Position numbers and translations under genes: made by a program. From NCBI GenBank assembly GCA_028875655.1, contig JAPPCX010000067.1:10019-74018 (forward strand): DNA of 64,000 bases. Direction: 5' to 3'. This DNA comes from Chloroflexota bacterium. Its GTDB lineage: Bacteria; Chloroflexota; Dehalococcoidia; Lucifugimonadales; UBA3495. A model generated the notes under the pieces. The model worked only from the letters and a program-made list of their open reading frames with translations. It made no database searches and had not been told where the DNA came from. Shown here in pieces: positions 4,027 through 41,081 of this stretch. The first letter of the stretch is position 1; each line of letters begins with the position of its first letter.

Positions 4027-4677
4027 ATGATGAATGAAGGCCGGTGGCCCGACCTGGCGGACGACCGGGCGGTGTTGTTGCGGGCGTTGTCCGCCTACGC
4101 CTGCGGAATGGGCGACGCGCCGATGGTGTGCAAGTGGGGGACGCTGGCGGAAGTTACCCAGGGCGACCACGAGGGTGGCCCCTACCACGAGGCTGGCAAA
4201 GCATCCGGGGAATTGTCGAGCGGGACGCTGACGTTCGTAGCGTCCACGGGGGCGGTGGACCGGCACGGCGATACGGTCGCGCCGGAAGGTTGGCGGCTGG
4301 ACGCCTACCGGGAGAACCCGGTGGTGCTGTGGGCCCACGACTACCGCCGGCCGGCCATCGGGCGAGCGCAGTCGGTGTGGCGGGACGGTGGCGCGCTGCT
4401 GGCATGCCTGGAGTTCGCGGACACCGATTTCGCCCGTGAGGTGGAGGGCCTGTATCGCCAGGGTTACCAGCAGGGCGTGTCCGTAGGGTTCCGCCCGCTG
4501 CGGTTTGAGGAACGGCGGGACGCCCGGAGCGGCGCGTTCCTGGGCATCCGGTTCCTGGAGCAGGAGTTGCTGGAGATCAGCGCGGTGCCCGTGCCGGCCA
4601 ACCGGGGCGCGCTGCTGGCGCACCGGGGTGGAGTAGCGGCGGAGGTGGTTGGGTTGCTGCGGGGGTTGCGGGCGTAG
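4027..4677 (+). CDS. HK97-family phage prohead (maturation) protease, S78/U35-like
   Basis: GTLTFVASTGAVDRHGDTVAPEGWRLDAYRENPVVLWAHDYRRPAIGRA...GVSVGFRPL...LLEISAVPVPAN. It sits immediately upstream of the HK97-type capsid gene. The start is uncertain because the N-terminal ~60 aa are atypical. Confidence 0.85.
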   Translation: MMNEGRWPDLADDRAVLLRALSAYACGMGDAPMVCKWGTLAEVTQGDHEGGPYHEAGKASGELSSGTLTFVASTGAVDRHGDTVAPEGWRLDAYRENPVVLWAHDYRRPAIGRAQSVWRDGGALLACLEFADTDFAREVEGLYRQGYQQGVSVGFRPLRFEERRDARSGAFLGIRFLEQELLEISAVPVPANRGALLAHRGGVAAEVVGLLRGLRA

Positions 4678-4760
4678 GGGCGGGTTTCAAAGGCGCCCTT
4701 ACGATGCCTGACGAGATCGCCGCCCGACGAGATCGCCGCGCTGCGCTCGCGAAGATTCCT

Positions 4761-4785
4761 GGATTCCCGCTTTCGCGGGAATGAC
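4761..4785. repeat. REP family 1 copy (ggattcccgctttcgcgggaatgac palindromic unit)
   Basis: The same 25-nt unit recurs at 18609..18633, 29748..29772 (rc, variant), 29798..29822 (variant), 55317..55341 (rc) and 63250..63274. Confidence 0.85.
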
Positions 4786-4807
4786 GGGGTGGGAGCGGGA
4801 ATGATGG

Positions 4808-4871
4808 GATGAAAAGCGGGTACGACGAAGTGGAAAGCGGGTACGACGAAGTGGAAAGCGGACACGACGAA
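4808..4871 (+). repeat. Tandem ~21-bp direct repeat x3 (plus degenerate copies to ~4915) directly upstream of the capsid gene
   Basis: gatgaaaagcgggtacgacgaa / gtggaaagcgggtacgacgaa / gtggaaagcggacacgacgaa, then a degenerate ttggaaaaccggaaagagagtta... Confidence 0.8.
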
Positions 4872-4911
4872 TTGGAAAACCGGAAAGAGAGTTAGAAAGT
4901 CGGAATGACGA

Positions 4912-6267
4912 TTGGAAAAGGAGAAATGCGAATTTATGACCCTTTCGACGTGGGAACTGGAAACCATTAAGAACGAAGTGGCGGAGGCGCGGGATTTCTA
5001 CCGCCAGCGGCTGGACGCGGACATTCCGCCGCTGCAGGAAGAGCTGGGCCGCCTCAGCCGCGCCGTCGGCGAGCTTACCGAAAAGCAGCGCGCCGGTGAA
5101 CGGCAGGCGATGCTGGCGCGGTATGGCAATCCCGGCGACCGGCCCCGCGTGCCCTATGGCAAGTACCAGGGCATGGACGCGCTGGACCTGGCCTGCGTGC
5201 GCAGCGTGCTGGCGTCCCAGCAGCGCGAGCCGGGCGACGGCAACCCTCGCCTACTGGCTGACTGGCAGGCGAACCTGAAGGCCGCCATGGACAGCACCAC
5301 CGCCGGCAGCGGCGACGAACTGGTCCCCACCGGCGAGGCCGCCGCACTATGGGCGGACGTCAACGTGGACACGCACGTCGCATCGCTGTTCACGCGGGTG
5401 GACATGCCCACCAACCCCTTTGAGATTCCGCTGCAACTGGGCGACGTGGCGTGGTATCCAGGGGTTGAGAACACCGCCACCACGGAAACGGCGCTGACCA
5501 CGGCGCGGCAGACGCTGACGGCATATGAGTTGGTAGCCGAAGTGCCGTGGTCGCTGACGCTGGACGAGGACGCGGTGATCGCCATGGCGGCAGAGGTGCG
5601 GAGCACGCTGGTGCGGAACGCCGTGGAGGTGATTGACGACGTGCTGCTCAACGCCGACACCACCGTGACCAACAACATCAACGCCGACGGCGTGACCATC
5701 AGCGCGTCCATGGCCGGCAAGGCCCACTGGCTGCTGGGGTTTGACGGGTTGTTGCACCTGCCGCTGGTGGACAATGACGGGCAGGCCAACAACCACGCGG
5801 CCGCGCCCAGCGCCGACATGTTCAACGAGGCGCGGGGCCTGCTGGGCAAGTACGGGGTGCGCCCGTCGGAGCTGGCCTACGTCGCCGACGTGGGCACCTA
5901 CATCAAGTCCCTGGCCATCGACGAGTTCCGTACGCTGGACAAGCTGGGGCCGCAGGCCACGCTGCTCAACGGCCAGCTGGCCCAGGTGGACGGCATCCCG
6001 GTCATCGTGTCCGAGCAGATGGCGAAATCGGACGCCGACGGCAAGGTAACGGACGGCGGCAGCACCAACGCCAAGGGCCGGCTGCTGGTGGTGAACCGGA
6101 CTCAATGGCGTCTCGGGTTCCGCCGGGAGCTGATGATCGAGACGACGCGGGACATCCAGAAGCGTCAGAACATCATGGTGGTGAGCATGAGGCTGGCCTT
6201 CATGGAAAGGACGGGGAAACGGGCGTCGGCGACGCACACGGCGTTGCAGTACAACATCACGGTGTAA
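4912..6267 (+). CDS. Phage major capsid protein, HK97 family
   Basis: Coiled-coil delta-like N-terminus, then ...ELVPTGEAAALWADVNVDTHVASLFTRVDMPTNPFEIPLQLGDVAWYPGVENTA...LTAYELVAEVPWSLTLDEDAVIAMAAEVRSTLVRNAVEVIDDVLLNAD. It follows the prohead protease. An alternative start is ATG 4927. Confidence 0.9.
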   Translation: MEKEKCEFMTLSTWELETIKNEVAEARDFYRQRLDADIPPLQEELGRLSRAVGELTEKQRAGERQAMLARYGNPGDRPRVPYGKYQGMDALDLACVRSVLASQQREPGDGNPRLLADWQANLKAAMDSTTAGSGDELVPTGEAAALWADVNVDTHVASLFTRVDMPTNPFEIPLQLGDVAWYPGVENTATTETALTTARQTLTAYELVAEVPWSLTLDEDAVIAMAAEVRSTLVRNAVEVIDDVLLNADTTVTNNINADGVTISASMAGKAHWLLGFDGLLHLPLVDNDGQANNHAAAPSADMFNEARGLLGKYGVRPSELAYVADVGTYIKSLAIDEFRTLDKLGPQATLLNGQLAQVDGIPVIVSEQMAKSDADGKVTDGGSTNAKGRLLVVNRTQWRLGFRRELMIETTRDIQKRQNIMVVSMRLAFMERTGKRASATHTALQYNITV

Positions 6268-6291
6268 TTGGGCGTCCGAACCCCAAACATT

Positions 6292-6384
6292 CCCTCTCCC
6301 TTGATGGGAGAGGGGCAGGGTGAGGGTGAAAACCTCTGCAAAATACCCCCTCACCCCAGCCCTCTCCCACCAGGGGAGAGGGAG
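6292..6384. repeat. REP family 3, inverted pair (ccctctcccttgatgggagagg...gggtgagggtga unit)
   Basis: ccctctcccttgatgggagaggggcagggtgagggtga is followed by the inverted ccctcaccccagccctctcccaccaggggagaggga. Related copies lie at 48259..48296 and 52765..52803. Confidence 0.8.
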
Positions 6385-6401
6385 GAAATGGAGGAATCTG
6401 A

Positions 6402-7247
6402 ATGGTGAATGCTTACGCGGACCTGGCGACGTTGAAATCGGCTTCGGTCTTGAACGCGCCCGATGACGCCCACGACGCTCGGCTGCTGACGCTGCTGGAG
6501 GCGGCGTCCCGCTGGATTGACGGCTACTGCGGCCGGCAGTTCGGCGCGATGCACGGCGAGCGTCGTTTTGACGGCACGGGCAAAGCGTCGCTGACGGTGC
6601 CCGACCTGGTAGCGGCCAGCGAAGTGCGCGTGCGGGAAGCGTCGGGCGAGTGGATCGGCTGGCCGGCGGCGGACTGGCTGCTGTATCCGCTGAACGCCGC
6701 GCCGACGGAACCGGGCGGCCGGCCTTATACGCGCATCATGCTGGCGTCGGGCGCGCATCGCCGGTTTCCGCTCAGCCGGGCCGGCGTGGTGGTGAGCGGA
6801 GTTTGGGGCTACGGCGACGTGCAGGAGGATACGGCTTTGCGGACGAGCGGAAACGCGGCGGTTGATGATGAAACGGTAACCGTGTCCATGCCCGGCGACG
6901 GCTTCGTTGCGCTGTCCGCCGGCCACACCATCCGCATCGACGACGAGCAGATGTACGTCTTTGGCGCAGCTGAGGATGGGCAGGGTGCATTGACGCTGGC
7001 GGTGCAGCGCAGAGTCAACGGGACGGAGCCATCGGCGCACGCCGCGGCGTCTGCAATCACTGTGTACCGGTACCCGAAAGGGGTATCGGAAGCGTGCCTG
7101 CTGCAGGCCGCCGTCTGGTGGCGCGAGAGGTTGGGTGGACCTTTCGTGCCGCCGGAGGGCGATGGGGGAGACGTTGGGGGCGTCTCCCCCACGGTTCGGA
7201 CGCTGCTGGCCCCGTACCGCCGCCGCCACGCCGTGCTGGGGGTGTGA
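6402..7247 (+). CDS. Phage head-tail connector (gp6-like/QLRG-type N-terminal domain) protein
   Basis: The N-terminus YADLATLKSASVLNAPDDAHDARLLTLLEAASRWIDGYCGRQF is typical of head-tail connector/DNA-packaging adaptor proteins. It sits right after the capsid gene. It is longer (281 aa) than the usual ~100 aa. Confidence 0.6.
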   Translation: MVNAYADLATLKSASVLNAPDDAHDARLLTLLEAASRWIDGYCGRQFGAMHGERRFDGTGKASLTVPDLVAASEVRVREASGEWIGWPAADWLLYPLNAAPTEPGGRPYTRIMLASGAHRRFPLSRAGVVVSGVWGYGDVQEDTALRTSGNAAVDDETVTVSMPGDGFVALSAGHTIRIDDEQMYVFGAAEDGQGALTLAVQRRVNGTEPSAHAAASAITVYRYPKGVSEACLLQAAVWWRERLGGPFVPPEGDGGDVGGVSPTVRTLLAPYRRRHAVLGV

Positions 7248-7249
7248 GC

Positions 7250-7678
7250 ATGACCGGATACGCCAGCGCCGGCTACAGCTACGTGGCGGTGGAGGACGCC
7301 GGCGGCGCGCTGCGGGACCTGTCGCCCTGGGTGGAGCGGGTCGGCCCGCTGGGGCGGGAGTTGGCGGCTCACGACGTTACCGGCGTGAACGACACGGCGG
7401 CGCGAACTGCGGCAGGGTCGGAGGTGGCCCAGGCGTTCACGTTGTCGGGGCGCTGGGACGATACACCGGGCATCGGGCCGGACGCCGTGCTGTCGGGCGT
7501 GGTAGGTCGCGCCGTGCGGGTGGAATACGGGCCGGCGGGCAACGCGCCGGGGCAGCGCCGGGTGTCGGGGAGGTTCGCGTGCCTGTCCTACCGCATCAGC
7601 AGCAAGACCGGCGAGCCGGTGCGGTTCGAGGCGACGTTCCGGCAGGACGGGCCGGTGGAGTTGGGGGTGTGGCCGTGA
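7250..7678 (+). CDS. Putative phage tail tube-like protein
   Basis: ATG at 7250, 3 nt after the previous stop. MTGYASAGYSYVAVEDAGGALRDLSPWVERVG...GRFACLSYRISSKTGEPVRFEATFRQDGPVELG. The call rests on size, position and a beta-rich pattern only. Confidence 0.45.
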   Translation: MTGYASAGYSYVAVEDAGGALRDLSPWVERVGPLGRELAAHDVTGVNDTAARTAAGSEVAQAFTLSGRWDDTPGIGPDAVLSGVVGRAVRVEYGPAGNAPGQRRVSGRFACLSYRISSKTGEPVRFEATFRQDGPVELGVWP

Positions 7679-7682
7679 GGGA

Positions 7683-7991
7683 TCAGTTGTTTGCCGCGGC
7701 GACTTCCTCGGGGACGATGACCACCTGGCCGGCGTCGTTATGGTGGTGGCGCATCAACGAGCCGATTCGGTCCATCAGTCCGCTCACTCGGAGTTCAAGG
7801 GAGCCAACGCGTTCGGTGAGTCCATTGATTTGGTCTCCCAAGCTTACGAGCAATTTGTTCATGCCCTCAAGTTGGCCCTGCATTTTGCCGATGACGAACG
7901 ATAGCCGGATTACAGCCGTTACCAGCGTAGCCAGCAGCAGGCAGATGAACGCCAGAAAACCGTAGAGGACGTAAAGCTCGGCGGGTGTCAT
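7683..7991 (-). CDS. Small membrane-anchored coiled-coil protein (hypothetical)
   Basis: N-terminal TM helix (LYVLYGFLAFICLLLATLVTAVI), then heptad-like LEGMNKLLVSLGDQINGLTERVGSLELRVSGLMDRIGSL. It is AT-richer than its neighbours and is opposite in orientation to the phage module. Confidence 0.5.
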   Translation of the reverse strand: MTPAELYVLYGFLAFICLLLATLVTAVIRLSFVIGKMQGQLEGMNKLLVSLGDQINGLTERVGSLELRVSGLMDRIGSLMRHHHNDAGQVVIVPEEVAAANN

Positions 7992-8076
7992 TCAAGGATG
8001 CCTCGGTCTGATTTGCAGCACAATTATGGCAGAGCAAACCGGCGGTTGCAAACGTTTAACCGGATAAAGGATTGAT

Positions 8077-10092
8077 GTGGGTAGCATGACAAAGGCGTTG
8101 CGCTGGCAGGTTTGGGTGGATTGGGCTGGGGGTGGTTCCTGGGATGCGGGCGGCGCAGACGTTTCCGCCGACGTGCTGGGACTGCGCTGGCGGTGGGGGC
8201 GACGCGGGCTGCCGGTTCCGGAGTTCGCGCCGCCGGCGGAGCTGGAACTGACGCTCAGCAATCACGACCATCGCTACACGCCGGGTAATATCGGCGGCCC
8301 ATTGGGCGCCAACGTGCGGCCGGGTCGGGAGGTGTCGCTGCGCGCCGGCCGAATCCACGACGACTTTGACACCGGCGGTGCGGAGTCCGTTGACCTTAAT
8401 GGCCGAGCGGCGTCCGGGGGCGAACGGTGGGAAGTGACGAGCGTCAGCGGCAACGGTTTTTCCGTATTGGACGGAACGGCGACGGGTCAAGGCGGTGGTT
8501 GGCCGCCCTCGGATGCGGTGGCCGTGCTGGATGCCGGCGATCCGCTGGCGACGCTGACGGCGCACTACCGGCGCGGCAGCAACGGGCTGGGCGGGTTCGT
8601 GTTGCGGTGCGCCGCTCAGGACGACTGCCTGCGCCTGCGGTTCGCCAGCGACGCGACCGTCATGGAGCGGGTGTCGGGAAGAACGGTTACGCGACTGTCC
8701 GACGGCGGCTCGCTGGAGACGGGGGTGTGGCATGACCTGGAGATTGAGCAGACCGCGGACAGCGTGCGTGTTCACGCCACCGGACTGGCCCAACCGGGCG
8801 CGACGCGGCGGGAAATCCTGGCGGCCACTGCCATCGCCGAGGCGCCAGACTCGAGCCGGCACGGGCTGTGGCACGGATTCCGCAACGCGCAGGACCGTTG
8901 GGGAGAATTCGGCGTGGGGCGCAGCCTGTTCAGCGGGCATATCACCGACGTCAGCCCGGATTATGAAGCCGGCGTGTGTCGCGTCACCGCCGCCGACGTG
9001 ATGCAGCGATTGGACACCGTGCCCCTGCACCGCGCGCTGGCCGGCGGCCTGATGCGCTCCGGCAACGTGGCGGCGGCGATCCTGGGCTGGGCCGGGTTGC
9101 TCCCCGGCGACTACGCGCTGGACGACGGGAGGACGCTGCTGACGGGAGGGGCGCGCTCGGTGTGGGACGTGTCGGCCGGCCGGGCGTTGCGGCGGTTGCA
9201 GCGGGAAGAGCACGGGATGATCTACGCCGACGGGTTGGGCCGCGTCCGTTTGGAAGCGGCGTCGCGGCGAGCCGGCGTGCGCGGCCATGCTGATCCGGCG
9301 TCGCTGGCCAGGTTTTCGATAGGAGACACCGCTGACGGCGGCGGCCCTTACGCGACATCCATCCATCGGAACGACGGAGCGGACGGCGTGGAGGACGCGG
9401 TCACCTTCCGCTACCGCCGCTCGTCGGACGCAGGCCGGCAGCAGGTGTGGAGACTCAACGAGGCGCTGGAAATACCGGCCGGCGGCGAGCAGGCATTGTT
9501 AGTGGCAACCGACACCTGGGACGTGATTGACGGCATCGCCGCGCCCGTGGCCGGCACGGACTACACCGCGACGGATGATGCCGACGGCGGCGGCAACGAC
9601 GTTACCGACGACATCACCATCGAGTTGCTTACCGAGGCGCAGTCGGGCATCGCCGGCCGGGGACACGCGCTACGCATCCGCAACGGCGGACAGAATACGG
9701 CCTATCTGCAAAGTCTGGACCTGTATGCGAACCACAGCTGGCGGACGCAGACCTCCAGCGCCGTTCGCGCCGAATCCGCCAACGCCGGCCTACCCCTGGA
9801 TACTGGACGCGGCCGGCTGGTCAACTGCCGGTACGCCGACAACTACGCGGCGGCCCGGGGCGCGGCGGAGGCGAGGATGGCGGAGCGTTCCCAACCGCGT
9901 CCCCAGCTTGAAGCGACGCTGTCGTTGCCTGGCGTCGGCAATTCCCGCGCGGTGGTGGAAGGCCGCTTGTCGGACGTTGTGGAGGTTGAGGCGGAGAGCG
10001 AGGGCATCGCCGGCGCGTGGCTGCTGGAAGGCATGGAGGTCAACGTCGTCGGCGGCGGCGGAGAGGTGCGGTGGTGGCTGACGGGGGTGTAG
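8077..10092 (+). CDS. Phage tail protein (siphovirus distal-tail/minor-tail-like) with a central lectin/LamG-like region
   Basis: The N-terminus ALRWQVWVDWAGGGSWDAGGADVSADVLGLRWRWGRRG...ELELTLSNHDHRYTPGN...VRPGREVSLRAG is the usual Sipho_tail-type opening. The middle region reads GFVLRCAAQDDCLRLRFASDATVMERVSG...WHDLEIEQTADSVRVHATG. Confidence 0.55.
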   Translation: MGSMTKALRWQVWVDWAGGGSWDAGGADVSADVLGLRWRWGRRGLPVPEFAPPAELELTLSNHDHRYTPGNIGGPLGANVRPGREVSLRAGRIHDDFDTGGAESVDLNGRAASGGERWEVTSVSGNGFSVLDGTATGQGGGWPPSDAVAVLDAGDPLATLTAHYRRGSNGLGGFVLRCAAQDDCLRLRFASDATVMERVSGRTVTRLSDGGSLETGVWHDLEIEQTADSVRVHATGLAQPGATRREILAATAIAEAPDSSRHGLWHGFRNAQDRWGEFGVGRSLFSGHITDVSPDYEAGVCRVTAADVMQRLDTVPLHRALAGGLMRSGNVAAAILGWAGLLPGDYALDDGRTLLTGGARSVWDVSAGRALRRLQREEHGMIYADGLGRVRLEAASRRAGVRGHADPASLARFSIGDTADGGGPYATSIHRNDGADGVEDAVTFRYRRSSDAGRQQVWRLNEALEIPAGGEQALLVATDTWDVIDGIAAPVAGTDYTATDDADGGGNDVTDDITIELLTEAQSGIAGRGHALRIRNGGQNTAYLQSLDLYANHSWRTQTSSAVRAESANAGLPLDTGRGRLVNCRYADNYAAARGAAEARMAERSQPRPQLEATLSLPGVGNSRAVVEGRLSDVVEVEAESEGIAGAWLLEGMEVNVVGGGGEVRWWLTGV

Positions 10093-10146
10093 AGAGCGGA
10101 CGAGTTCAGAGTACTAAAACAAAGTCCCCTTGGCTTTGATAAAAGC

Positions 10147-10212
10147 CAGCGTCACTAAAGTTTGCTTGAATTACGCCGCTGGACAATAAAATATGGGCGT
10201 CCAATTTTTAAT
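10147..10212 (+). repeat. Imperfect ~66-bp direct repeat, copy 1 (AT-rich spacer upstream of fic)
   Basis: cagcgtcactaaagtttgcttgaattacgccgctggacaataaaatatgggcgtccaatttttaat versus copy 2 below, roughly three quarters identical by eye. Confidence 0.7.
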
Positions 10213-10368
10213 CGATGCCGCCGTTGTTTTACTTTGCGCCGATAAGGGAGTGAATCAAGTGAGTCAAATCTCTGACGATGGTTGACCTCGTCCGCAACGT
10301 GTCGGGTTCCAGTCAAGCGGCGGCCGTCTTTAACATCAAAGCTATAAGCTCTAAATTTTGATTACAAT

Positions 10369-10434
10369 CAGCGTCGCTAAAGCTTGCTTAAACGACGCCT
10401 GCTGTCATTAAAATATGGCAAGCAAAATTTTGAT
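10369..10434 (+). repeat. Imperfect ~66-bp direct repeat, copy 2
   Basis: cagcgtcgctaaagcttgcttaaacgacgcctgctgtcattaaaatatggcaagcaaaattttgat. It lies 222 bp downstream of copy 1 and ends ~50 bp before the fic start. Confidence 0.7.
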
Positions 10435-10483
10435 ACGGAGACGGGCTTTGAAATCCGTATACGCAGCAATGGGGTGTTGAACA

Positions 10484-11647
10484 ATGCGACGCGATAATAC
10501 CGGTTATTATGATGTATGGATGTCGGGTGGGGAGGAGATACGCGCCTTCGTACCGGTGCCCTTGCCGCCGGCTCCCCCGTTAGTGTTGGAAGGTTCCCTG
10601 CGGCAATCTCTCGAACAAGCTACTCTCGCGCTGGGTCGGTTAGATGGCATTGCGACGTTATTGCCCGACCCAGCCCTGTTCATATATGCCTATGTGCGTA
10701 AGGAAGCATTGCTGTCTTCACAGATCGAGGGAACTCAATCCTCGTTGTCGGACTTGCTGGAATTTGAGATTGACGACGCGCCAGGCGCACCAATGCACGA
10801 CGTGGTGGAGGTATCCAACTACGTTGCTGCCATGGAGCACGGGCTAGAGCGGCTGAACCATGATTTCCCCCTCTCTAACCGCTTGATTCGGGAAATACAC
10901 GCTATCCTCCTCTCGCGGGGCAGGGGTAGCGCTATGAACCCTGGCGAGTTCCGAACCTCTCAGAACTGGATCGGAGGCCGACGTCCCGGCAACGCGGTTT
11001 ACGTTCCGCCACCACCGACCGCAGTACCTGATTGCATGGGTGAATTGGAACGATTTTTGCATGCCACCGACGACGGACTTCCTACTTTGGTTCGGGCAGG
11101 GTTGGCTCACGCGCAGTTCGAGACCATCCACCCTTTTCTTGACGGCAACGGACGCACCGGACGCTTGTTGATCACTTTCCTGCTCTGCCATGCGGGGATG
11201 TTAAAAGACCCTCTGCTCTATCTGAGCCTCTACTTCAAGCAGCACCGGTCCGACTACTACGAATTGCTGAATGATGTGCGCCGGACCGGAGACTGGGAAG
11301 ATTGGCTTGACTTTTTCCTAGAAGGTGTTCGGGAAACCGCAAACGGTGCTTTTGGAACGACCCAACAGTTGTTGAAGTTGTTTGCTCAACATCGTGATCA
11401 AATACAGCAAACTGGACGCCGTGCGGGTTCGGCGCTACGCGTACATGAAAAACTCATGGCTCACCCGGTTCAGTCTATCTCCGGCGTAGCCGAAAGTACA
11501 GCATTGACATTTCCAACCGTTTCTTCCGCTATGAATCTTCTAATCAGCATGGGCATCGCCCGCGAGATAACCGGCCGGCGCAGTGACCGCCTCTTTGCCT
11601 ACGATGAATACCTCTCCATTCTCAGCGAGGGCACCGAACCGCTGTAG
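10484..11647 (+). CDS. Fic family protein (class II, Fic_N + Fic + C-terminal wHTH-like)
   Basis: Fic motif HPFLDGNGRTGRLL, N-terminal inhibitory-helix motif SSQIEG ([S/T]xxxE[G/N]), and a C-terminal helix-rich tail. Confidence 0.9.
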   Translation: MRRDNTGYYDVWMSGGEEIRAFVPVPLPPAPPLVLEGSLRQSLEQATLALGRLDGIATLLPDPALFIYAYVRKEALLSSQIEGTQSSLSDLLEFEIDDAPGAPMHDVVEVSNYVAAMEHGLERLNHDFPLSNRLIREIHAILLSRGRGSAMNPGEFRTSQNWIGGRRPGNAVYVPPPPTAVPDCMGELERFLHATDDGLPTLVRAGLAHAQFETIHPFLDGNGRTGRLLITFLLCHAGMLKDPLLYLSLYFKQHRSDYYELLNDVRRTGDWEDWLDFFLEGVRETANGAFGTTQQLLKLFAQHRDQIQQTGRRAGSALRVHEKLMAHPVQSISGVAESTALTFPTVSSAMNLLISMGIAREITGRRSDRLFAYDEYLSILSEGTEPL

Positions 11648-17814: not shown

Positions 17815-17917
17815 TCTTCGGTCACACCATAGTGCAACCACGCCCCCGCCCAGTCCGGCGGGGGTTCTTCATTGGCAAAGTTGCTGAGTGTGCGGCCCGC
17901 CGCTATACTGCGGCATC

Positions 17918-18607
17918 ATGGCCCTCAATCCCGACGACTTTCCTCCAGACTCCTACACGGAGCTGCCGCTGTTCCCATTGAACAACGTGGTGCTGTTTCC
18001 TGATATGCCGCTGCCGCTGCATATTTTCGAGGAACGGTACAAGGCCATGATCGGCGACTGCGTCCAGCGCGAGGAACCTTTTGGCGTGCTGCTGATCCGG
18101 GAGGGCAACGAGGTTGGCGAGCCGGCCTCGCCCCACGCCGTCGGCACCACCGCCCGCATCGCCCAGGTGCAGCGGCTGGAGGAAGGCCGGCTGAATATCC
18201 TCACGCGCGGCGAGCGACGGTTCGAGCTGCTGGAAACCGTGCGGACGGTGCCGCACCTGGTGGGCCTGGTGCGCTATATCGAGGATGAAGAGGGCGCCGT
18301 TTCGACCACCACCGTGGCCGGCGTACGCGAGCAGTACATCCAGTTGCAGCGCCATCTCACGGCCATGGCCGGCGGCTGGGACCGGGAGGTCTCGGTTCCC
18401 GACAATCCGTCCGAACTGGCGCGGCGGTCGGCGGTGTCCCTGGCCGTCAGCCTGCCGCTGCCGCCGGACGTGCGCCAGGACCTGCTGGAAACCCGCACGG
18501 CGGGCCAGCAACTGGAAAAGCTGCTGACGCTGATGCGCCAGGCCAACCGCATCGTAGCGGAGCAGGTGGAGCAGAACACGCCGTTCAAGGGTGCGCGGCT
18601 GAACTAG
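17918..18607 (+). CDS. LON N-terminal (substrate-binding) domain protein
   Basis: LPLFPLNNVVLFPDMPLPLHIFEERYKAMI...FGVLLIREG...VGTTARI...RLEEGRLNILTRGERRF is the Lon N-domain signature, with no ATPase or protease part. Confidence 0.85.
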   Translation: MALNPDDFPPDSYTELPLFPLNNVVLFPDMPLPLHIFEERYKAMIGDCVQREEPFGVLLIREGNEVGEPASPHAVGTTARIAQVQRLEEGRLNILTRGERRFELLETVRTVPHLVGLVRYIEDEEGAVSTTTVAGVREQYIQLQRHLTAMAGGWDREVSVPDNPSELARRSAVSLAVSLPLPPDVRQDLLETRTAGQQLEKLLTLMRQANRIVAEQVEQNTPFKGARLN

Positions 18608-18665
18608 TGGATTCCCGCTTTCGCGGGAATGACAGGGTGGGAGTTCGGAGTGACGAAGTGATTGT

Positions 18666-19589
18666 TCAAGCGGCGTAGATTCGGCGGGCGCCCATTTCGG
18701 GGACCATGCCGGAGAACAGCTCCGGGTGGATCATTTCGGCCAGTATTTCCAGGCCGGTGACCAGGCGGGGGCCGGACCGGCTGGTGTAGTTGCTGGCGTC
18801 GATGGCGAACACCCGGTTGTTCTGCACCGCGGGCAGTGAATCCCAGCCGTCCTTTTCGGTGAGCAGGGGCACGTCCTGCAAGGCCCGGGGCACTTCAAAC
18901 CCGCAGGGCATCAGCACGATGACCTCCGGCCGGCTCTCCAGCACCGCGTCCCATTCCAGCGGGAACGACCCCAGCTCCTTGTCGCCGAAGCAGTTTTCGC
19001 CGCCGGCCAATTCCACCATCTCCGGAACCCAGTGGCCGCCGCACATCAGAGGGTCGGTCCATTCCAGGTGCAGCACGCGCGGATGGCTGCCAGCCATTTG
19101 AGAGCGTTGCGCAACCGCGTCGATGCGCTCCTGCATCCGCGCCGTCACGTCGTCGGCAACCGCGTCGGCTCCCGTGGCGCGGCCCACGCGGCGCACGTCT
19201 TCCAGCACGTCTCCCAGGTACTGAGGGTCCAGGGACAGCACCTCCGGCTGCTTGGTCATGTTGGCGGTGGACTCGGCAACCTGCCGAGAGGAAACCGCTC
19301 AAACCTCGCAGATGGCCTGGGTCAGCAGGAGGTCGGGGTTGGCCGCGTCCAGGATGTCCTGGTCGATGTGGTAGATGCCCAGGCCCTCCGCCAGCCGTTC
19401 GGAGATGACCCGGCTGATTTCGCCGCTGCTGGGATTGGTGCCCTCGAAAACGCTGCGGACCACCCACGGCTTGTTTTTAGCAGCCGCCGGGTAGTCGCAT
19501 TCGTGGGTCACGCCGTGGAGCTGGTCTTCCAGCCCGAGGGAGTACACAATCTCGGTGGCCGAGGGCAAAAAAGAGCAAATACGCATCAT
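18666..19589 (-). CDS. Cytoplasmic BtuF/TroA-like (class III periplasmic-binding-protein fold) protein with an in-frame TGA at 19299..19301 (candidate selenocysteine; otherwise a nonsense pseudogene)
   Basis: Track ORFs 19299..19589 and 18666..19259 are in the same frame. The joined reading is MMRICSFLPSATEIVYSLGL...HECDYP...DLLLTQAICEV-TGA-AVSSRQVAESTANMTKQPEVLSLDP...HLEWTDPLMCGGHWVPEMVELAGG...VIVLMPCGF...NRVFAIDASNYTSRSGPRLV. There is no signal peptide. Confidence 0.7.
19264..19301 (-). promoter_or_regulatory. SECIS-like stem-loop immediately 3' of the in-frame UGA
   Basis: Minus strand reads UGA-GCGGU-UUCCU-CUCGGCA-GGU-UGCCGAG-UCC-ACCGC. This gives a 5-bp lower stem, an internal loop, a perfect 7-bp upper stem and a GGU apical loop that starts 18 nt after the UGA. 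Confidence 0.5.
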
Positions 19590-19643
19590 GCACCTTACGG
19601 GTAGGCGGTTGGGTTCGCCGGCATTTTAGCATTTCGGGGGTGG

Positions 19644-21629
19644 CTAGTCGCCTTCCGACCGCTGCGGCTGGCGCTCTTCACTCCTCGACTGGTTGGGGTA
19701 GCGCAGGGTTGTGATGCGTTCCTCCAGGATGCGCCAGAGACCCTCCACCGTTTCTTCCGCATCGGCGGCGGCAGCAGGAGCGGCGAACCTGGCCGGCGGC
19801 CGGCCCACCGGTTCGTGCTGCCCGTCGTGCAATGCCGGAGTTTCCACGTCCACCGGCGTGAACACGTCGTCCTGCGCTCTGTCCGACGCCGGGGGGCGCG
19901 CCAGCGGCGTGGTGGGCGCAACGAAAGTCTCGTGGAACGCGGTTTCCAGTACCCGGTGGATATGAAAGCCAACCAATACCAGCAGTCCTGCCGAAGCCAC
20001 CAGCAAGATGATGGGCAAGGGAGCGGACAGGGAACCCAGCGCGAACAGCCGAATGATCAGGGGCAGCAGAGCCACCACGGCCAGCAGTAGCAGCACGGTA
20101 GCCATGCCGTCCTGCATCAGCGTCCGCAGGGTGAAACGCGCGGGTTCTCCGGACCTGGCCCACCGGTTCGCGCCAACGGTCAGGCGCGCGAGGATGCGCA
20201 GTTCCCGCCAGATTGCGATGCTCGGCGGGATTATCAACCCTATCGTCGCGCCGCCGAAAATCAGGCCCAGCAGGTCCTGGGACACCGGCATAATTCCGGC
20301 GAGGAACTCCGGCAGCGTGTACACGGCTATGGTTCCGATGGCGGTCAGGATGGCGATGATCAGGATGTTGATCATTATTTGCCGGACCAGGGTTTTCAGC
20401 ACGCGGCCGGTGCGACCGGGCAGCGAAAATGCCGACCAGAAGGTCCTGATGCCCAGGTGAACCGCCAGATCCATCTCCACTAAAGTCGGCGGAGCCTTGC
20501 GTTTCACCGAGTCGCAAAGGGGCATGGCCAGGCGCGAAGTCAGCGGCGCGAGCACCGAGGTGATGGCGGTAACTATCGCCAGAATCGGCGCGACGATGGG
20601 GCCGGCCACCGCGTCCGCCGCGCTCAGCCGGCCGATAGCCAGCGAGAACTCGCCCATCTGGGGCATGGACATGCCAACCCGCACCGCTTGACGGGAATCC
20701 CGTCCCGACAGCACCGAGCCGATGGTGTTGGCAATCATCTTGCCGGCCATGAACACGCCGACGATCATCAGGGCCGGCAGGATGAAGTCGTCCAGCGTGC
20801 GGTAGTCGAGCAGCATCCCTATGGACATGAAGAACAGCGCGCCGAACATATCCCGCACCGGGCTGACCAGCCGGGTCACGCGACCGGCGGCGTCGGTGTC
20901 GCCGATCACCACGCCGATCAGGAAGGCGCCGGCGGCCGCCGACAGGCCCAGGAACTCCGCGCCGATCGCCAATCCGAAGCAGCAGCCCAGCGAGGCGAGG
21001 AGCAGGGTCTCATCGGACCTGGTGCGGGACAGCAGCCGCATCAGGCGCGGCGCCAGCAGGGTGCCAAAGGCCAGCGCGGCTACTGAGAATATGGCCAGTT
21101 TTCCCACCAGCCAGCTTACGTCGCCCAGTTCCGCGGAGCCGGTGGTGGCGATACCGGCGAGGAGCGTTAACAGGATGACCGCCGCGAAATCCTCCACCAG
21201 CAGGATGCCGACAATGGTTTGTCCCCAGCCCGAACGCAGATTACCGCTGTCGCGCAGCCCTTTCAGCAGGATCGCGGAACTGCTGATTGCCATTGCTCCG
21301 CCCAGATACAGGCCGCTGGCGCCGGAAATGCCCAGCACTTTGTTGGCGATCAGCACGCCCAGCAGGGTCAGCGTGGTGATCTCCACCACGCCGATCACCA
21401 GCACCAGCAGGCCGATTTCTCGGATGCGTCGCCAGCCCAGTTCCAGCCCGATGCCGAACAGTAGCAGGATCAGGCCCAACTCCGCCATCAGTTCGATGGT
21501 GTCCAGGTTGCTGACGACGGGAGTGGGCAGCGTGAATGGGCCGATCAGCAAGCCGGCGGCCAGGTAGCCAAGCACCGGCGGTTGCCAGACCAGCCGGGCG
21601 AAAGCCAGCCCCGCAGCTGCAATGGCCAT
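19644..21629 (-). CDS. Cation:proton antiporter (CPA2/Kef-type) with a long low-complexity C-terminal tail
   Basis: QPPVLGYLAAGLLIGPF...ELGLILLLFGIGLE... and ~12 TM segments. The reading frame stays open ~130 nt upstream of the annotated ATG, but no canonical start lies there. Confidence 0.85.
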   Translation of the reverse strand: MAIAAAGLAFARLVWQPPVLGYLAAGLLIGPFTLPTPVVSNLDTIELMAELGLILLLFGIGLELGWRRIREIGLLVLVIGVVEITTLTLLGVLIANKVLGISGASGLYLGGAMAISSSAILLKGLRDSGNLRSGWGQTIVGILLVEDFAAVILLTLLAGIATTGSAELGDVSWLVGKLAIFSVAALAFGTLLAPRLMRLLSRTRSDETLLLASLGCCFGLAIGAEFLGLSAAAGAFLIGVVIGDTDAAGRVTRLVSPVRDMFGALFFMSIGMLLDYRTLDDFILPALMIVGVFMAGKMIANTIGSVLSGRDSRQAVRVGMSMPQMGEFSLAIGRLSAADAVAGPIVAPILAIVTAITSVLAPLTSRLAMPLCDSVKRKAPPTLVEMDLAVHLGIRTFWSAFSLPGRTGRVLKTLVRQIMINILIIAILTAIGTIAVYTLPEFLAGIMPVSQDLLGLIFGGATIGLIIPPSIAIWRELRILARLTVGANRWARSGEPARFTLRTLMQDGMATVLLLLAVVALLPLIIRLFALGSLSAPLPIILLVASAGLLVLVGFHIHRVLETAFHETFVAPTTPLARPPASDRAQDDVFTPVDVETPALHDGQHEPVGRPPARFAAPAAAADAEETVEGLWRILEERITTLRYPNQSRSEERQPQRSEGD

Positions 21630-21804: not shown

Positions 21805-22164
21805 TCAACGCTTCTTCCAGGTGTCCACCAGGTAGTTGCCCTGGTCGTCATCCACGCCCCAGATCTTGAAGTGGATGCGGACGTCGGCGTAGAGGCTGAG
21901 GTCGCCCGGAACCGCGTCGGGGTCGCGGTAGGCTTCCGCCGAAACCTCCATGAAGTCCACCGGCGCGTCGTCGGTCAGCGCGATGCGCTCCACCATATTG
22001 ACCGCGCAGGCGGTGATGCCGGACAGGAAGTATTCGCCGGCGCCCACGTAGGCGCCGCCGCTGTCGTCGGCCACCCAGTGGTGATCCCGCGCGTTGCAGA
22101 TTGCCCTGCCGTGGGTGCCCGAACTGTACGTCTGCACCAGGTAGGTCCTTTCCAGTGTAGCCAT
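21805..22164 (-). CDS. OsmC/Ohr family protein
   Basis: 119 aa. ...GGAYVGAGEYFLSGITACAVNMVERIA... The size and the conserved Cys-containing helix fit the OsmC fold. Confidence 0.75.
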   Translation of the reverse strand: MATLERTYLVQTYSSGTHGRAICNARDHHWVADDSGGAYVGAGEYFLSGITACAVNMVERIALTDDAPVDFMEVSAEAYRDPDAVPGDLSLYADVRIHFKIWGVDDDQGNYLVDTWKKR

Positions 22165-31430: not shown

Positions 31431-32270
31431 ATGATCGTTCGCTCCATTGTGGTTGCCGCCGCCGTCCTCGCGGCCATGCTGATTGCCCTGGCCTGCGCGC
31501 CGGCCGGCCGGAGTTCCGGCGACGCGGAAAGCACCCTGACGGTATTCGCGGCCGCGTCCCTGGCCGAGTCGTTCCAGGCCCTGGCCGCCGCTTTTGAGGA
31601 CGACCATCCCGGCGTCAGGGTCGCGTTCAACTTCGCCGGCAGCCAGACCCTCCGCACACAGCTGGAACACGGTGCGGAGGCCGACGTGTTCGCCTCCGCC
31701 AATTGGCAGCACATGGCGCAGGTCAAGGAGTCCGGCCTGCTGGGCAACGTGCCCGAGTATTTCGCGGCCAACCGCCTGGCCGTCGTGGCGCCTGCGGATT
31801 CCGACGCGGTGCAGAGTCTGACCGACCTCGCCCGTCCCGGCGTCAGCATCGCCATCGCCGCCGAGGAAGTGCCGGCCGGCGCCTATACCCGCGAGTCCCT
31901 GGCCCTCCTGGGAACCTCCGACGCTTTCCCCGGCGACTACGCATCCGTCGTGCTGTCCAACGTGGTGACCAACGAGACCAGCGTGCGCGGGGTGGCGCAG
32001 AAAGTAGCCTTGGGCGAGGTGGACGCCGGCATCGTGTACGAGACCGACGCGCTGGCGGCGCAGTACGCCGGCGCCATCCGCACGCTGGAGATCCCGTTGC
32101 AGTTCAATCCGGCGGCCCAATACCCCATCGCCGCGTTGTCCAGCACCGACGAGCTTGAAACCGCTTTGGAGTTCATCAAGTTCGTCCAGGGCGATTCCGG
32201 CCAGGCCATCCTGCGCGATCACGGGTTCGTCCCGCCGGCCAATATCACCTGCCCGTGCCACGCCGGATGA
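31431..32270 (+). CDS. modA: Molybdate ABC transporter substrate-binding lipoprotein
   Basis: Lipobox LIALAC. TVFAAASLAESFQALAAAFEDDHPGVRVAFNFAGSQTLRTQLEHGAEADVFASAN...GEVDAGIVYETD. Confidence 0.9.
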   Translation: MIVRSIVVAAAVLAAMLIALACAPAGRSSGDAESTLTVFAAASLAESFQALAAAFEDDHPGVRVAFNFAGSQTLRTQLEHGAEADVFASANWQHMAQVKESGLLGNVPEYFAANRLAVVAPADSDAVQSLTDLARPGVSIAIAAEEVPAGAYTRESLALLGTSDAFPGDYASVVLSNVVTNETSVRGVAQKVALGEVDAGIVYETDALAAQYAGAIRTLEIPLQFNPAAQYPIAALSSTDELETALEFIKFVQGDSGQAILRDHGFVPPANITCPCHAG

Positions 32271-32285
32271 ATCCCCGGACAACGA

Positions 32286-32311
32286 GATTGCCACGCTGCG
32301 CTCGCAATGAC
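32286..32311. repeat. REP family 2 copy (gtcattgcgagcgcagcgtggcaatc unit, here reverse-complemented)
   Basis: gattgccacgctgcgctcgcaatgac. Other copies lie at 40956..41046 (inverted pair) and 55387..55412. Confidence 0.8.
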
Positions 32312-32333
32312 ACGTTGTGCGAAGTAGGTACAC

Positions 32334-33179
32334 ATGAGGATGATGTTCCTATCTGCGGGCAATGGTAATCGTGGCGCGGCGCTGGGCGCGCTGGCCCCGG
32401 CCGGCGTCGCGGCCACCGTCATCTACGTGCTGTTCATCGGGCTGCCTATCCTGGCGCTGCTGGTGCGGGCCGGCCAGGAGGAGGGATTCCTGGCCGGGCT
32501 GACCGGCCCCCTGGTGCTGCAAGCCCTGCGCCTCACGGTGGTCACCAGCGTCATCAGCCTGGTCATCGTGGTGGTGGTCGGCACGCCTTTCGCCCTGCTG
32601 CTGGCCCGGCAGGGGTCGACCAGCCGGCTGCTGCGCGTCATCGACACGTTTGTGGAGTTGCCAATCGTGCTGCCGCCGATCGTGGCCGGCGTCGCCATGC
32701 TGATGGCCTTCGGGCGCAACGGCCTGCTGGGACCAGCCCTGGCGTCCGTGGGTGTCGCGATCCCGTTCACCACCGTGGCCGTCATATTCGCCCAGATTTT
32801 CGTGGCCGCGCCCTTTTACATCCGGGCCGCTCGCATCGGGTTCACCGGCGTTGACCCGGCGTATGAAGAAGTTTCGCAGACCCTGGGGGTCTCGCCCTGG
32901 CAGACTTTCTGGCGGTTGACCCTGCCCATGGCGCGGCCGTCCCTGCTGACGGGGGCGACGCTGGCCTGGGCCCGGGCGGTGTCCGAGTTTGGCGCAACCA
33001 TCATGTTCGCTGGCAACCTCACCGGACGCACTCAGACCATGCCGCTGGCGATAATGACCACCATGGAATCCAGCCTGGGTGCCGCGCTGGCGTTGGCCAT
33101 CCTCATGCTGGCGATTTCGGCCCTGTCCCTGGCCCTGCTGAGCTTCCTGCTCCGGCGGCGAGCGAAGGCATCGCCATGA
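32334..33179 (+). CDS. modB: Molybdate ABC transporter permease
   Basis: ...FIGLPILALL...LTVVTSVISLVIVVVVGTPFA...EEVSQTLGVSPWQTFWRLTLPMARPSLLTGATLAWARAVSEFGATIMFAGN (EAA loop). The start is uncertain. Confidence 0.9.
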   Translation: MRMMFLSAGNGNRGAALGALAPAGVAATVIYVLFIGLPILALLVRAGQEEGFLAGLTGPLVLQALRLTVVTSVISLVIVVVVGTPFALLLARQGSTSRLLRVIDTFVELPIVLPPIVAGVAMLMAFGRNGLLGPALASVGVAIPFTTVAVIFAQIFVAAPFYIRAARIGFTGVDPAYEEVSQTLGVSPWQTFWRLTLPMARPSLLTGATLAWARAVSEFGATIMFAGNLTGRTQTMPLAIMTTMESSLGAALALAILMLAISALSLALLSFLLRRRAKASP

Positions 33180-34279
33180 ACGACGCGGCGGTTAAGGGCC
33201 AATTCAGCGTCAGCGTCGGCGGCTTCGCCGTCAAGCTCGCTTTCTCAGTGGAGGCCGGCAGGGTGCTGGTGCTGTTCGGCCCGTCCGGGGCCGGCAAGAC
33301 CACGGCACTGCGAACCATCGCCGGCCTGGCGCGGCCCGAATCCGGTCGCATCGTCATCGCCGGCCGCACCGTGTTCGCTGACAACGACGGCGAACCGCCC
33401 TGCTGGGAGCCGCCCCATCGTCGCGGCGTTGGCTACGTTACCCAGCAGAACCACCTGTTTCCGCACCTTACGGTGGCGGAGAACATCGCCTACGGCTTGC
33501 CCGACCGGCGTAGCGACTCCGCCCACCGGCGGGTGTCCCACCTGATAGACCGCCTGCACCTGGCCAGCTTGGAGGACCGGCGGGTCTCGCAACTCTCCGG
33601 CGGGCAGCAGCAGCGCACGGCATTGGCCCGCGCGCTGGCCCCGTCGCCGGACCTGCTGCTGCTGGACGAGCCATTCAGCTCGCTGGACATGGAACTGCGC
33701 CGCGCGCTGGGAGTCGAGTTGCGCTCCGCCATCCGGGAGCTCAACGTCCCGGTCATCATGGTAACGCACAGCCGGGAGGAAGCCCTGGCTCTGGGCGACA
33801 CGGTGCAAATCTTGGAGGCCGGCCGGGTTGTCGCGGAAGGGCCTCCACTGCATGTGCTGGAGCAGCCGGGCCAGGGCCAGGTCGCCCGGCTTGTGGGCGT
33901 GGAGAACCTGCTCCGGATGCGGGTCGCCGCCCGTCTGCCCCAGGACGGCACCATGGTGTGCCAGGCCGGCGAACGAGCGCTGGAAACGCCGCTGGCCGAT
34001 GGCTGCGCCGTCGGGGATGCCGTCACCGTGGGCATCCGCGCCTCCGACATCATCCTTGCCGCCGGCCCACTGCCCCAGTCGTCGGCCCGCAACACCTGGG
34101 CCGGCGTGGTGTCCGCCGTCGAGCTGCGTCCGCCCGGTTACGAAGTGGCGCTGGACTGCGCCGGAACCATCCTGCGCTGCCACATCACCGGCGCGTCGCT
34201 GGACGCCATGGGCATCACCGCCGGGCAGCCACTGTGGGCCATTTTCAAGGCGTCGTCGTGTTTCCTGCTGAGCGAATGA
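33176..34279 (+). CDS. modC: Molybdate ABC transporter ATP-binding protein with a C-terminal TOBE-like domain
   Basis: Walker A GPSGAGKTT, signature LSGGQQQRTALARAL, Walker B LLLLDEPFSSLD, H-loop VTHSREEA. Confidence 0.9.
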   Translation: MNDAAVKGQFSVSVGGFAVKLAFSVEAGRVLVLFGPSGAGKTTALRTIAGLARPESGRIVIAGRTVFADNDGEPPCWEPPHRRGVGYVTQQNHLFPHLTVAENIAYGLPDRRSDSAHRRVSHLIDRLHLASLEDRRVSQLSGGQQQRTALARALAPSPDLLLLDEPFSSLDMELRRALGVELRSAIRELNVPVIMVTHSREEALALGDTVQILEAGRVVAEGPPLHVLEQPGQGQVARLVGVENLLRMRVAARLPQDGTMVCQAGERALETPLADGCAVGDAVTVGIRASDIILAAGPLPQSSARNTWAGVVSAVELRPPGYEVALDCAGTILRCHITGASLDAMGITAGQPLWAIFKASSCFLLSE

Positions 34280-40933: not shown

Positions 40934-40955
40934 AACCCTCACGCGTACCCAGTTT

Positions 40956-41046
40956 GTCATTGCGAGGAGCGCAGCGACGTGGCAATCTCGTTGACGAAGG
41001 GGTTGTTGCTCAGCCGGCGAGATTGCCACGCTGCGCTCGCAATGAC
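40956..41046. repeat. REP family 2, inverted pair between hsdR and hsdM/S
   Basis: gtcattgcgaggagcgcagcgacgtggcaatctcg ... gagattgccacgctgcgctcgcaatgac. Confidence 0.8.
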
Positions 41047-41081
41047 AACTCTGGCGAAAGTGAGCACGCCGTAACGAAACC

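Follow-up and report, generated by a model that had tools for sequence, protein, structure and literature searches.

A conserved in-frame TGA followed by a SECIS-like hairpin marks a candidate selenocysteine-containing BtuF-like protein in Dehalococcoidia

Introduction

Selenoprotein catalogs contain a predicted family listed as 'Cobalamin-binding protein BtuF' (cd01144), with a CxxU motif and one selenocysteine (Sec, U) (Zhang-lab reviews PMC9312934, 2022, and PMC13188914, 2026). The family is represented by RUA21600.1 in PMC9312934 and by MDE0719563.1 in PMC13188914. Both reviews credit Peng et al. 2016, in whose main text and Table S3 the family is not named, and both give it a table row alone, with no selenocysteine insertion sequence (SECIS), distribution, structure or function. 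A table footnote in PMC9312934 reserves italics for families annotated in truncated form only. Here, we describe a gene of this kind at 18666..19589, on the minus strand of a 64-kb stretch of DNA from a Chloroflexota bacterium of the class Dehalococcoidia (contig JAPPCX010000067.1); this entire stretch is referred to as the window. The frame encodes a BtuF-like protein and is interrupted by a TGA at codon 97. We consider it highly likely that this TGA is a selenocysteine codon with a functional SECIS, because the TGA is held by selection at a cysteine column together with a SECIS-type hairpin.

The gene shares with the cataloged family a BtuF-like Peripla_BP_2 domain, the CxxU motif, a single predicted Sec, an origin among proteins of metagenome-assembled genomes (MAGs) and truncated annotation. 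From domain and motif we infer that it is an orthologous member of that family. The finding is a rediscovery of a cataloged and uncharacterised selenoprotein family, and the claim that such a protein exists adds little. Added here are a well-defined, conserved candidate SECIS with an apex like that of fdhF, the restriction of the Sec form to a lineage, and a testable hypothesis of a cleft with four (seleno)cysteines. In BSepDB, the ten bacterial genomes richest in selenoproteins include two Dehalococcoidia MAGs, each with 46-49 selenoprotein genes (PMC13326102).

Two further systems offer parallels for a selenium-containing binding protein. SaoB and SaoX of the SAO system (Haft and Gwadz 2023) resemble the window protein in having a substrate-binding fold, with Sec and Cys converging on the cleft and a proposed ligation of metals or organometallic compounds. 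They belong, however, to another class of substrate-binding proteins, SaoB being related to 3VVE/4ZV2-type and SaoX to 4NMY/2X26-type structures. Both have a CU motif of their own, are secreted or lipoproteins and are linked to transporters, whereas the window protein has CxxU, no signal peptide and unrelated neighbors. Hosts of SaoB and SaoX are anaerobic Firmicutes, spirochaetes and Deltaproteobacteria. In BtuM of Thiobacillus denitrificans, decyanation is driven by a Cys thiolate that is bound to the cobalt of B12 (PMC6072759). This is a precedent for thiolate-on-corrin chemistry, a role that Sec could by analogy perform better. BtuM is a membrane protein of the energy-coupling factor S-component type with an unrelated fold, and the analogy is mechanistic only.

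A reading frame interrupted by one conserved TGA

Translation of 19589..18666 on the minus strand yields a single frame of 307 codons. The frame is interrupted only once, by a TGA at 19301..19299 in the context ...DLLLTQAICEV-TGA-AVSSRQVAE..., that is, C-E-V-TGA. The two open reading frames (ORFs) called at 19299..19589 and 18666..19259 on the minus strand lie in this common frame, as the original prediction from the sequence had proposed when it joined them into one gene with a single TGA interruption. The complete recoded gene (18666..19589) would carry Sec at codon 97 of a BtuF-like class III binding-protein fold and ends at a terminator TGA at 18668..18666. The candidate Sec codon (U97; 19299..19301, minus strand) holds the second position of the motif C94-E-V-U97, an assignment based on the cysteine column and on the conservation of the TGA. 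The codon of its CxxU partner Cys94 lies at 19308..19310 on the same strand, and this residue is invariant in 143/143 family members.

The N-terminus MMRICSFLPSATE forms strand beta-1 of the fold, with at most 12 in-frame codons upstream. The N-terminal sequence MRICSF... is common to the 29 full-length homologs with cysteine at the TGA column (Cys-type), and two of its residues, Arg3 and Ser6, are conserved throughout the family of 143 members. A Shine-Dalgarno-like TAAGGTG, read from the sequence at 19591..19597 (minus strand), precedes ATG codons at 19589 and 19586, the second of which may be the true start. No export signal peptide was found and the frame opens at strand beta-1, and the protein is therefore considered to be cytoplasmic. 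A scan of 18450..19800 for promoters and terminators found nothing.

To the window gene we added 89 loci of Dehalococcoidia/Chloroflexota from species-representative genomes, giving a TGA-type set of 90 loci and 87 distinct sequences. Eighty of the 89 came from a first retrieval (68-95% protein identity); all of these are from Dehalococcoidia/Chloroflexota MAGs, many of them, by name, from sponges or sea-water. A second scan contributed nine more TGA-type loci, among them divergent ones reading L-C-E-E-TGA-A-(V/I)-T-A-R-Q-V-A-E that are 47-49% identical to the Cys-type query P0014. Codon 97 is TGA in 90/90 loci and 87/87 distinct sequences, and never TAA or TAG. Two further assemblies of the window's own strain, from other samples, are identical in local sequence and TGA, with the gene called as pieces of 95 and 197 residues.

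Homologs beyond this set carry cysteine where the TGA stands. Protein matches above about 80% identity are all truncated products of 192-220 residues that begin just past the TGA. Every full-length homolog (55-68% identity) has Cys at the column, with QAICEVCA in ten that were aligned, and so do 56/56 Cys-type loci. Across the 143-sequence, multi-phylum family, the column is invariantly Cys or Sec. The cysteine that had been predicted for relatives of this protein was found, in the consensus Q-x-(I/L)-C-x-V-C-A. Judged from the sequences compared, only one Dehalococcoidia lineage has Sec forms, and the much wider family in which it is nested is Cys-type and lacks a signal peptide. Sec would have taken the place of the second Cys of an ancestral CxxC within this one marine and sponge-associated lineage.

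The original prediction had kept a broken gene as its alternative, with the TGA being either a nonsense mutation in a pseudogene or a sequencing or assembly error of TGC or TGT. Public gene calls do give pieces of 95 and 197 residues, and close relatives appear in databases only as truncated products of 196-220 residues. Such damage is hard to reconcile with a TGA at the same codon in 87 distinct sequences and two further assemblies, with TAA and TAG never found. Selection on the protein is also evident on both sides of the TGA. Against eleven orthologs, the ratio of nonsynonymous to synonymous substitution rates (dN/dS) is 0.03-0.35 both for the 96 codons before the TGA and for the 210 after it, with dS up to saturation. 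We give a pseudogene or an error practically no chance.

Alternatively, the UGA could be a real and conserved stop, with a 96-residue N-terminal piece and a restarted C-terminal piece assembling as a split binding protein. The conservation of both halves would fit, gene finders call two pieces, and the window has an ATG 14 codons past the TGA. This restart is not general, since 44/87 sequences have no ATG, GTG or TTG within 12 codons of the TGA and only 44/87 have an ATG within 24 codons. A plain stop would also drift among TGA, TAA and TAG, yet TGA is found in 87/87. The break would fall inside a loop-helix element of the N-lobe, exactly at the column of an invariant Cys, and the SECIS-like hairpin with its frozen synonymous sites would be left unaccounted for. 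A split protein is very improbable in our assessment. The low dN/dS on both sides, the exclusive use of TGA and the lack of a conserved restart together therefore exclude a pseudogene, a sequencing error and a split gene for practical purposes.

A reassignment of TGA in the genetic code was considered and rejected, as TGA terminates 18/48 roughly called genes of the window, including the recoded gene. TGA elsewhere, including the end of the recoded gene, would stay an ordinary stop. In a crude scan of coding potential across the window, one other TGA junction had coding-like flanks, and it corresponds to the adjacent genes ispF and cysS. The recoded gene is the sole coding-like in-frame TGA junction in the window that is not explained by two neighboring genes. 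A scan for coding-like TGAs in the flanks of the 89 orthologous loci found no further conserved in-frame TGA.

If the UGA is read as Sec, the full-length protein is restored for marine and sponge-symbiont Dehalococcoidia in at least 89 genomes at the species level. In public records, the gene is systematically misannotated and is entered either in truncated form under the name "ABC transporter substrate-binding protein" or as a pair of ORFs. Truncated entries of this name in the cluster include MXZ91408.1, MYD48076.1 and MCE2501477.1.

The immediate codon context of the UGA is constrained as well. The preceding codon, Val96 (19302..19304, minus strand), is GTT in the window and in 82/83 Sec-type genes carrying Val at this position. 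GTT is fixed although the GC content at third codon positions is about 0.85, and the base after the UGA is always G, a GUU-UGA-G context unexplained by the protein.

A predicted SECIS directly downstream of the UGA

The mRNA past the UGA is predicted to form a hairpin. Its conserved core (19272..19288, minus strand) consists of the upper stem CUCGGC/GCCGAG and the apical loop (A)GGU(U), as indicated by pairing, frozen codons and constraints on bacterial SECIS elements (bSECIS). The core helix has 6 bp, extended to 7 bp in the window by an A-U closing pair. The upper hairpin CUCGGC-AGGUN-GCCGAG begins 10 nt past the UGA, with the GGU loop starting at the 18th nucleotide (spacing 17). In the minimum free energy (MFE) fold, the element extends to 19264..19298 on the minus strand through a clade-specific lower stem of GCGGU (19298..19294) and ACCGC (19268..19264). 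Folding of the 66 nt around the UGA yields an MFE of -26.9 kcal/mol (z = -2.78; 3/200 dinucleotide shuffles as stable), and the core hairpin by itself has -9.8 kcal/mol. The fold that had been drawn from the sequence was recovered exactly. Its upper stem-loop is conserved, with the helix paired in 98.4% of cells among 83 distinct 66-nt sequences, whereas the 5-bp lower stem is specific to the subclade of the window and paired in 72.5% of cells across orthologs.

Codon usage in the Sec-type genes (87 sequences) suggests that selection acts on the RNA. Counting from the UGA, Ser+4 is TCT in 70/73, Arg+5 is CGG in 85/85, Gln+6 is CAG in 87/87 and Glu+9 is GAG in 85/86, and Ala+8 is GCC (82) or GCT (5) but never GCG or GCA. 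The third base of Val+7, which falls in the loop, occurs as all four bases, and codons +1 to +3 are free to vary. The frozen synonymous positions coincide exactly with the arms CUCGGC and GCCGAG. In one pair of the upper helix, G-C is replaced by A-U in two sequences and by G-U in three. Where A-U appears, the codon of one arm has changed from Arg to Gln and that of the other arm has changed silently. The Cys-type genes are the decisive control, as seven close Cys-type homologs encode nearly the same peptide, (S/P)(S/A/T)(R/Q)QV…, with other codons and no hairpin. The search for TGA-containing orthologs with a conserved hairpin, suggested by the original prediction, therefore had a clear outcome: all 90 loci have TGA, and the arms are held by frozen synonymous codons.

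Published bSECIS constraints comprise a loop of 3-9 nt, a stem of 4-16 bp, a G in the first two loop positions, a distance of 16-37 nt from the UGA and an MFE of at most -7.5 kcal/mol (PMC13188914). They are passed by 84/87 Sec-type versus 6/55 Cys-type sequences. For the window element, the values are a GGU loop, a 7-bp stem, a spacing of 17 and an MFE of -19.4 kcal/mol. The SECIS of E. coli fdhF likewise is a hairpin inside the coding sequence right past the UGA, and both elements fit the bSECIS model. The likeness to fdhF that had been proposed holds down to the apex, which is GCA-GGUC-UGC at 18 nt past the UGA in fdhF (taken from the K-12 genome) and GCA-GGU-UGC at 17 nt here. The upper stem of fdhF contains a bulged U, while here it is a perfect helix of 6-7 bp with no bulged U and the lower stem is unconserved.

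The divergent Sec-type subgroup of four Dehalococcoidia MAG loci (L086-L089) reads L-C-E-E-U-A-(V/I)-T-A-R-Q-V-A-E-A-C, with L086 having V for the final E. These loci retain a hairpin with a GGU loop, but their stem is bulged (GCCCGGC / GCCGAGGC) and is nearer to the bulged architecture of fdhF.

We propose that the hairpin CUCGGC-AGGUU-GCCGAG acts as a bacterial SECIS, so that the UGA would be read as Sec and not as a stop. Once the hairpin with its GGU loop emerges, about 10 nt behind a UGA that occupies the A site, SelB with Sec-tRNA(Sec) would bind it and insert Sec. Without selenium, a fragment of 96 residues is expected.

Selenocysteine decoding in related genomes

Genes for the decoding machinery were sought in the window, in the retrieved loci and in related genomes. 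According to ARAGORN, neither the window nor the loci with selA contain a tRNA, and Pfam annotation of about 50 window ORFs revealed no selA, selB or selD. With E. coli SelA, SelB and SelD as queries, tblastn of the window and of every retrieved locus gave only weak SelD-like matches. These were rejected, as they represent ThiL adjoining TsaE. ThiL (thiamine-monophosphate kinase) is a false SelD-like match at 26-28% identity. In one subclade (L040, L044, L047, L050, L054, L055 and L064), ThiL and then TsaE lie about 1 kb downstream of the Sec gene.

The selA genes of related MAGs were retrieved by a genome scan with a back-translated SelA motif, which led to Dehalococcoidia selA and its relatives, followed by a rescan with their alignment. 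The rescan listed 80 loci, and the closest relatives of the window fall outside the sampled set. Among the listed loci, four stem from MAGs that contain a TGA ortholog as well, namely B28T3L11 (L065/L311), 286066b2 (L056/L318), RHO1_bin_4 (L050/L319) and 2f52b1ca (L076/L328). In 2f52b1ca, both are located on the same contig, CBDFLW010000004.1. A tentative fifth selA MAG is 865023ef (OZ220464.1, 3,265,669 bp), where selA is possibly on the same contig as the truncated ortholog P0081. The SelA proteins of these MAGs are 44-48% identical to E. coli SelA along its entire length. A protein search with Dehalococcoidia SelA returned 120 matches, none on chromosomes bearing the BtuF-like gene. At the level of the lineage, the presence of Sec machinery is supported by selA in related MAGs.

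Several observations weigh against Sec decoding. The window contains no tRNA-Sec, selA, selB or selD, and in the related MAGs, selB, selD and tRNA-Sec were not found adjacent to selA. Covariation in the hairpin is thin, the helix being kept mostly by invariance with a two-sided change in one pair in 2 sequences, and shuffle and slide controls were unremarkable for covariation measures. Rfam searches of the whole window at gathering thresholds and of 19180..19360 at E <= 10 gave only chance matches and no SECIS or tRNA-Sec.

The lack of Sec-machinery genes in the window would also agree with a selenium-free read-through. In this case, Trp, Cys or Gly would be inserted by a near-cognate or suppressor tRNA, and the hairpin would do no more than slow down termination. 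Hairpin-stimulated UGA read-through exists in other systems. Such read-through would leave other features unexplained. Cysteine in every homolog at the recoded column is the hallmark of Cys/Sec pairs, and the hairpin both fits the bacterial SECIS model and is a near-copy of the fdhF apex that is bound by SelB. Furthermore, selA co-occurs with TGA orthologs, and TGA otherwise serves this genome as an ordinary stop. We regard read-through without selenium as improbable and favor Sec insertion at codon 97.

Protein fold and the (seleno)cysteine cleft

The product matches Pfam PF01497 (Peripla_BP_2; E = 1.4e-20), and the NCBIfam models for BtuF, IsdE and F420-0 binding proteins match weakly. The NCBIfam BtuF equivalog NF002894 scores 32.5 bits, below its cutoff of 234. 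The structure was modeled with AlphaFold on a Cys homolog (P0004) that is 67-68% identical to the window protein, giving a predicted local distance difference test score (pLDDT) of 90.4 and a predicted template modeling score (pTM) of 0.89. Foldseek matched the model to RhuT, ShuT, BhuT and the BtuF proteins of V. cholerae and E. coli, with target-normalized template modeling scores of 0.8-0.85 and E values from 1e-17 to 1e-12, and the match to the BtuF profile has an hhalign probability of 96%. Together with the missing signal peptide, the Pfam domain and the model matches to RhuT, ShuT and BtuF uphold the original assignment to a cytoplasmic class III binding-protein fold.

Conservation was assessed in the family alignment, whose 143 members come from Dehalococcoidia, Acidobacteriota, Verrucomicrobiota, Gemmatimonadota and others. 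The second locus scan further detected relatives in Thaumarchaeota and haloarchaea, with most thaumarchaeal loci standing outside the alignment. Residues invariant in all 143 members include Cys31, Cys94, Cys/Sec97, Cys229, His186, Trp187, Glu30, Asp32, Gln91 and Arg275, and Arg271 is nearly so (138/143). The codon of Cys31 (19497..19499, minus strand) belongs to the motif H-E-C-D-Y-P and aligns beside Tyr50 of E. coli BtuF. That of Cys229 (18903..18905, minus strand) belongs to M-P-C-G-F, in a loop after a C-lobe beta strand of the model. The codons of Cys183-Gly-Gly-His186 (19032..19043, minus strand) fall in M-C-G-G-H-W-V-P-E, a stretch aligned to the ligand loop that carries Phe162 in E. 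coli BtuF. His186, Trp187, Pro189 and Glu190 are invariant or nearly so, and Cys183 is kept in closer relatives only.

In the P0004 model, all four Cys/Sec residues are located in loops that follow beta strands. The CxxU motif is placed after a beta strand and ahead of a helix N-terminus, with residues 92-101 leading into helix 102-110. By hhalign, the Cys/Sec loops align with the Tyr50, Trp85 and Phe162 loops of BtuF, which form the walls of the ligand cleft; a 4-residue insertion in the Trp85 loop bears Cys94. Tyr50 is replaced by Glu30, Trp85 by Gln91 and Phe162 by Met182. We take Trp85 to be a cobalamin contact of E. coli BtuF as well. The contacts described for the E. coli protein are Y50, W66, F162, F168 and W196 (PMC5662663).

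The comparison with BtuF (E. coli 1N2Z/1N4A; V. cholerae 5YSC) is divided. Shared are the two-lobe class III fold and the motifs PxxTE, DYP, GGxN(I/C)F and SPR/GPR, as well as GHW with V. cholerae BtuF. Unlike BtuF, the window protein has no signal peptide and no btuCD neighbors, the Tyr50 and Phe162 contacts are replaced, and it has the insertion with Cys94 and three more invariant Cys/Sec residues that BtuF lacks. The protein has a BtuF-like class III fold but fails the tests for BtuF proper, that is, export, linkage, equivalog and contacts.

We propose that U97 most likely forms a (seleno)thiolate-rich site in the inter-lobe cleft with Cys31, Cys94, Cys229 and His186, because these residues, judged by sequence alignment and secondary-structure positions, are located in loops homologous to the ligand-binding loops of BtuF. 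With lower confidence, this site might ligate a metal-containing ligand, such as corrinoid cobalt, a metal ion or a cluster, or might cycle as a C94-U97 selenenylsulfide. Two findings speak against this functional proposal. The cobalamin-contact aromatics of E. coli BtuF are unconserved, and no BtuC/BtuD-type permease or ATPase, transporter or cobalamin genes are linked to the BtuF-like gene. The original prediction had called the motif redox-type. The CxxU itself (C94-E-V-U97) was found, and redox activity is only one of two plausible chemistries.

As a redox couple, the CxxU would act like that of a thioredoxin on a substrate thiol or disulfide, with the BtuF-like fold as a mere scaffold. 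The placement of CxxU between a strand and a helix N-terminus in the model, as for CxxC in thioredoxin folds, is in line with such a role, and predicted selenoproteins with CxxU or UxxC are for the most part taken to be redox proteins (PMC13188914). The equal invariance of Cys31, Cys229 and His186, from other cleft loops and the other lobe, points rather to a multi-ligand site, and the fold family is ligand-binding throughout. We consider the redox role possible but unlikely.

In its most novel form, the metal-ligand proposal would make the protein a cytoplasmic handler of a corrinoid or another metal cofactor. Sec97 would either ligate the metal, e.g., through an axial Se-Co bond, or attack it, helped by Cys94, Cys31, Cys229 and His186. 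An attack on the metal could result in reductive dealkylation or decyanation. This specific assignment is speculative, and we hold it to be rather doubtful in either form. If true, a class III binding-protein fold would for the first time be seen to act as a cofactor chaperone or enzyme that depends on selenium, and a widespread four-cysteine family of Thaumarchaeota, Acidobacteriota, haloarchaea and Dehalococcoidia would gain a function. A corrinoid or metal center as the ligand would represent an unusual use of selenium outside classical redox enzymes.

Gene neighborhood and other features of the window

A Na+/H+ exchanger family protein (PF00999; 19644..21629, minus strand) is encoded 55 nt upstream of the recoded gene. 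The exchanger is upstream on the same strand in 63/89 Sec-type loci, which we treat as syntenic context only. An OsmC-like protein of 119 residues (21805..22164, minus strand; weak Pfam match) is present in 57/89 Sec-type loci in synteny with the exchanger and the Sec gene, and it has no in-frame TGA. OsmC-like proteins are an established selenoprotein family. The conserved gene order of the Sec clade is OsmC-like, Na+/H+ exchanger, BtuF-like gene and a convergent gene for a Lon N-domain protein. Clustering of 78 non-Sec loci revealed no neighbor conserved across phyla. One locus, L171 (ENA ERZ25069412), has the exchanger protein sequence and the TGA-local sequence as in the window. Compared with 17888..18607 of the window, genes with fn3/CLIPPER domains replace the Lon N-domain gene in this locus, a strain-level rearrangement directly after the gene.

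In three Cys-type loci (L161, L162 and L164), the BtuF-like gene is found beside a ModABC-like transporter or XdhC, an association too narrow to build on and a weak hint at best of a molybdenum or tungsten connection. The window annotation includes a ModABC-like transporter at 31431..34279 on the plus strand, with SBP_bac_11, a permease and an ATPase with a TOBE domain.

Elsewhere in the window, a prohead serine protease (PF04586) and an HK97-type major capsid protein (PF05065) are encoded side by side at 4027..6267 on the plus strand. After the capsid genes, two large ORFs without Pfam matches and a Fic-domain protein occupy 6402..10092 and 10484..11647. The cluster at 4027..11647 could be a prophage remnant or another capsid-based element. 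Defense-like genes are scattered at 38660..43007, 48553..50581, 56461..58164 and 61471..63195. They include a restriction-modification pair, made up of a ResIII helicase and an N6 methylase that has a specificity domain. A small protein with a RelA/SpoT domain is encoded next to an NA37 nucleoid protein. Also present are an OLD-like ATPase (AAA_15) and a fusion of an N4/N6 methylase with an Mrr-like nuclease domain.

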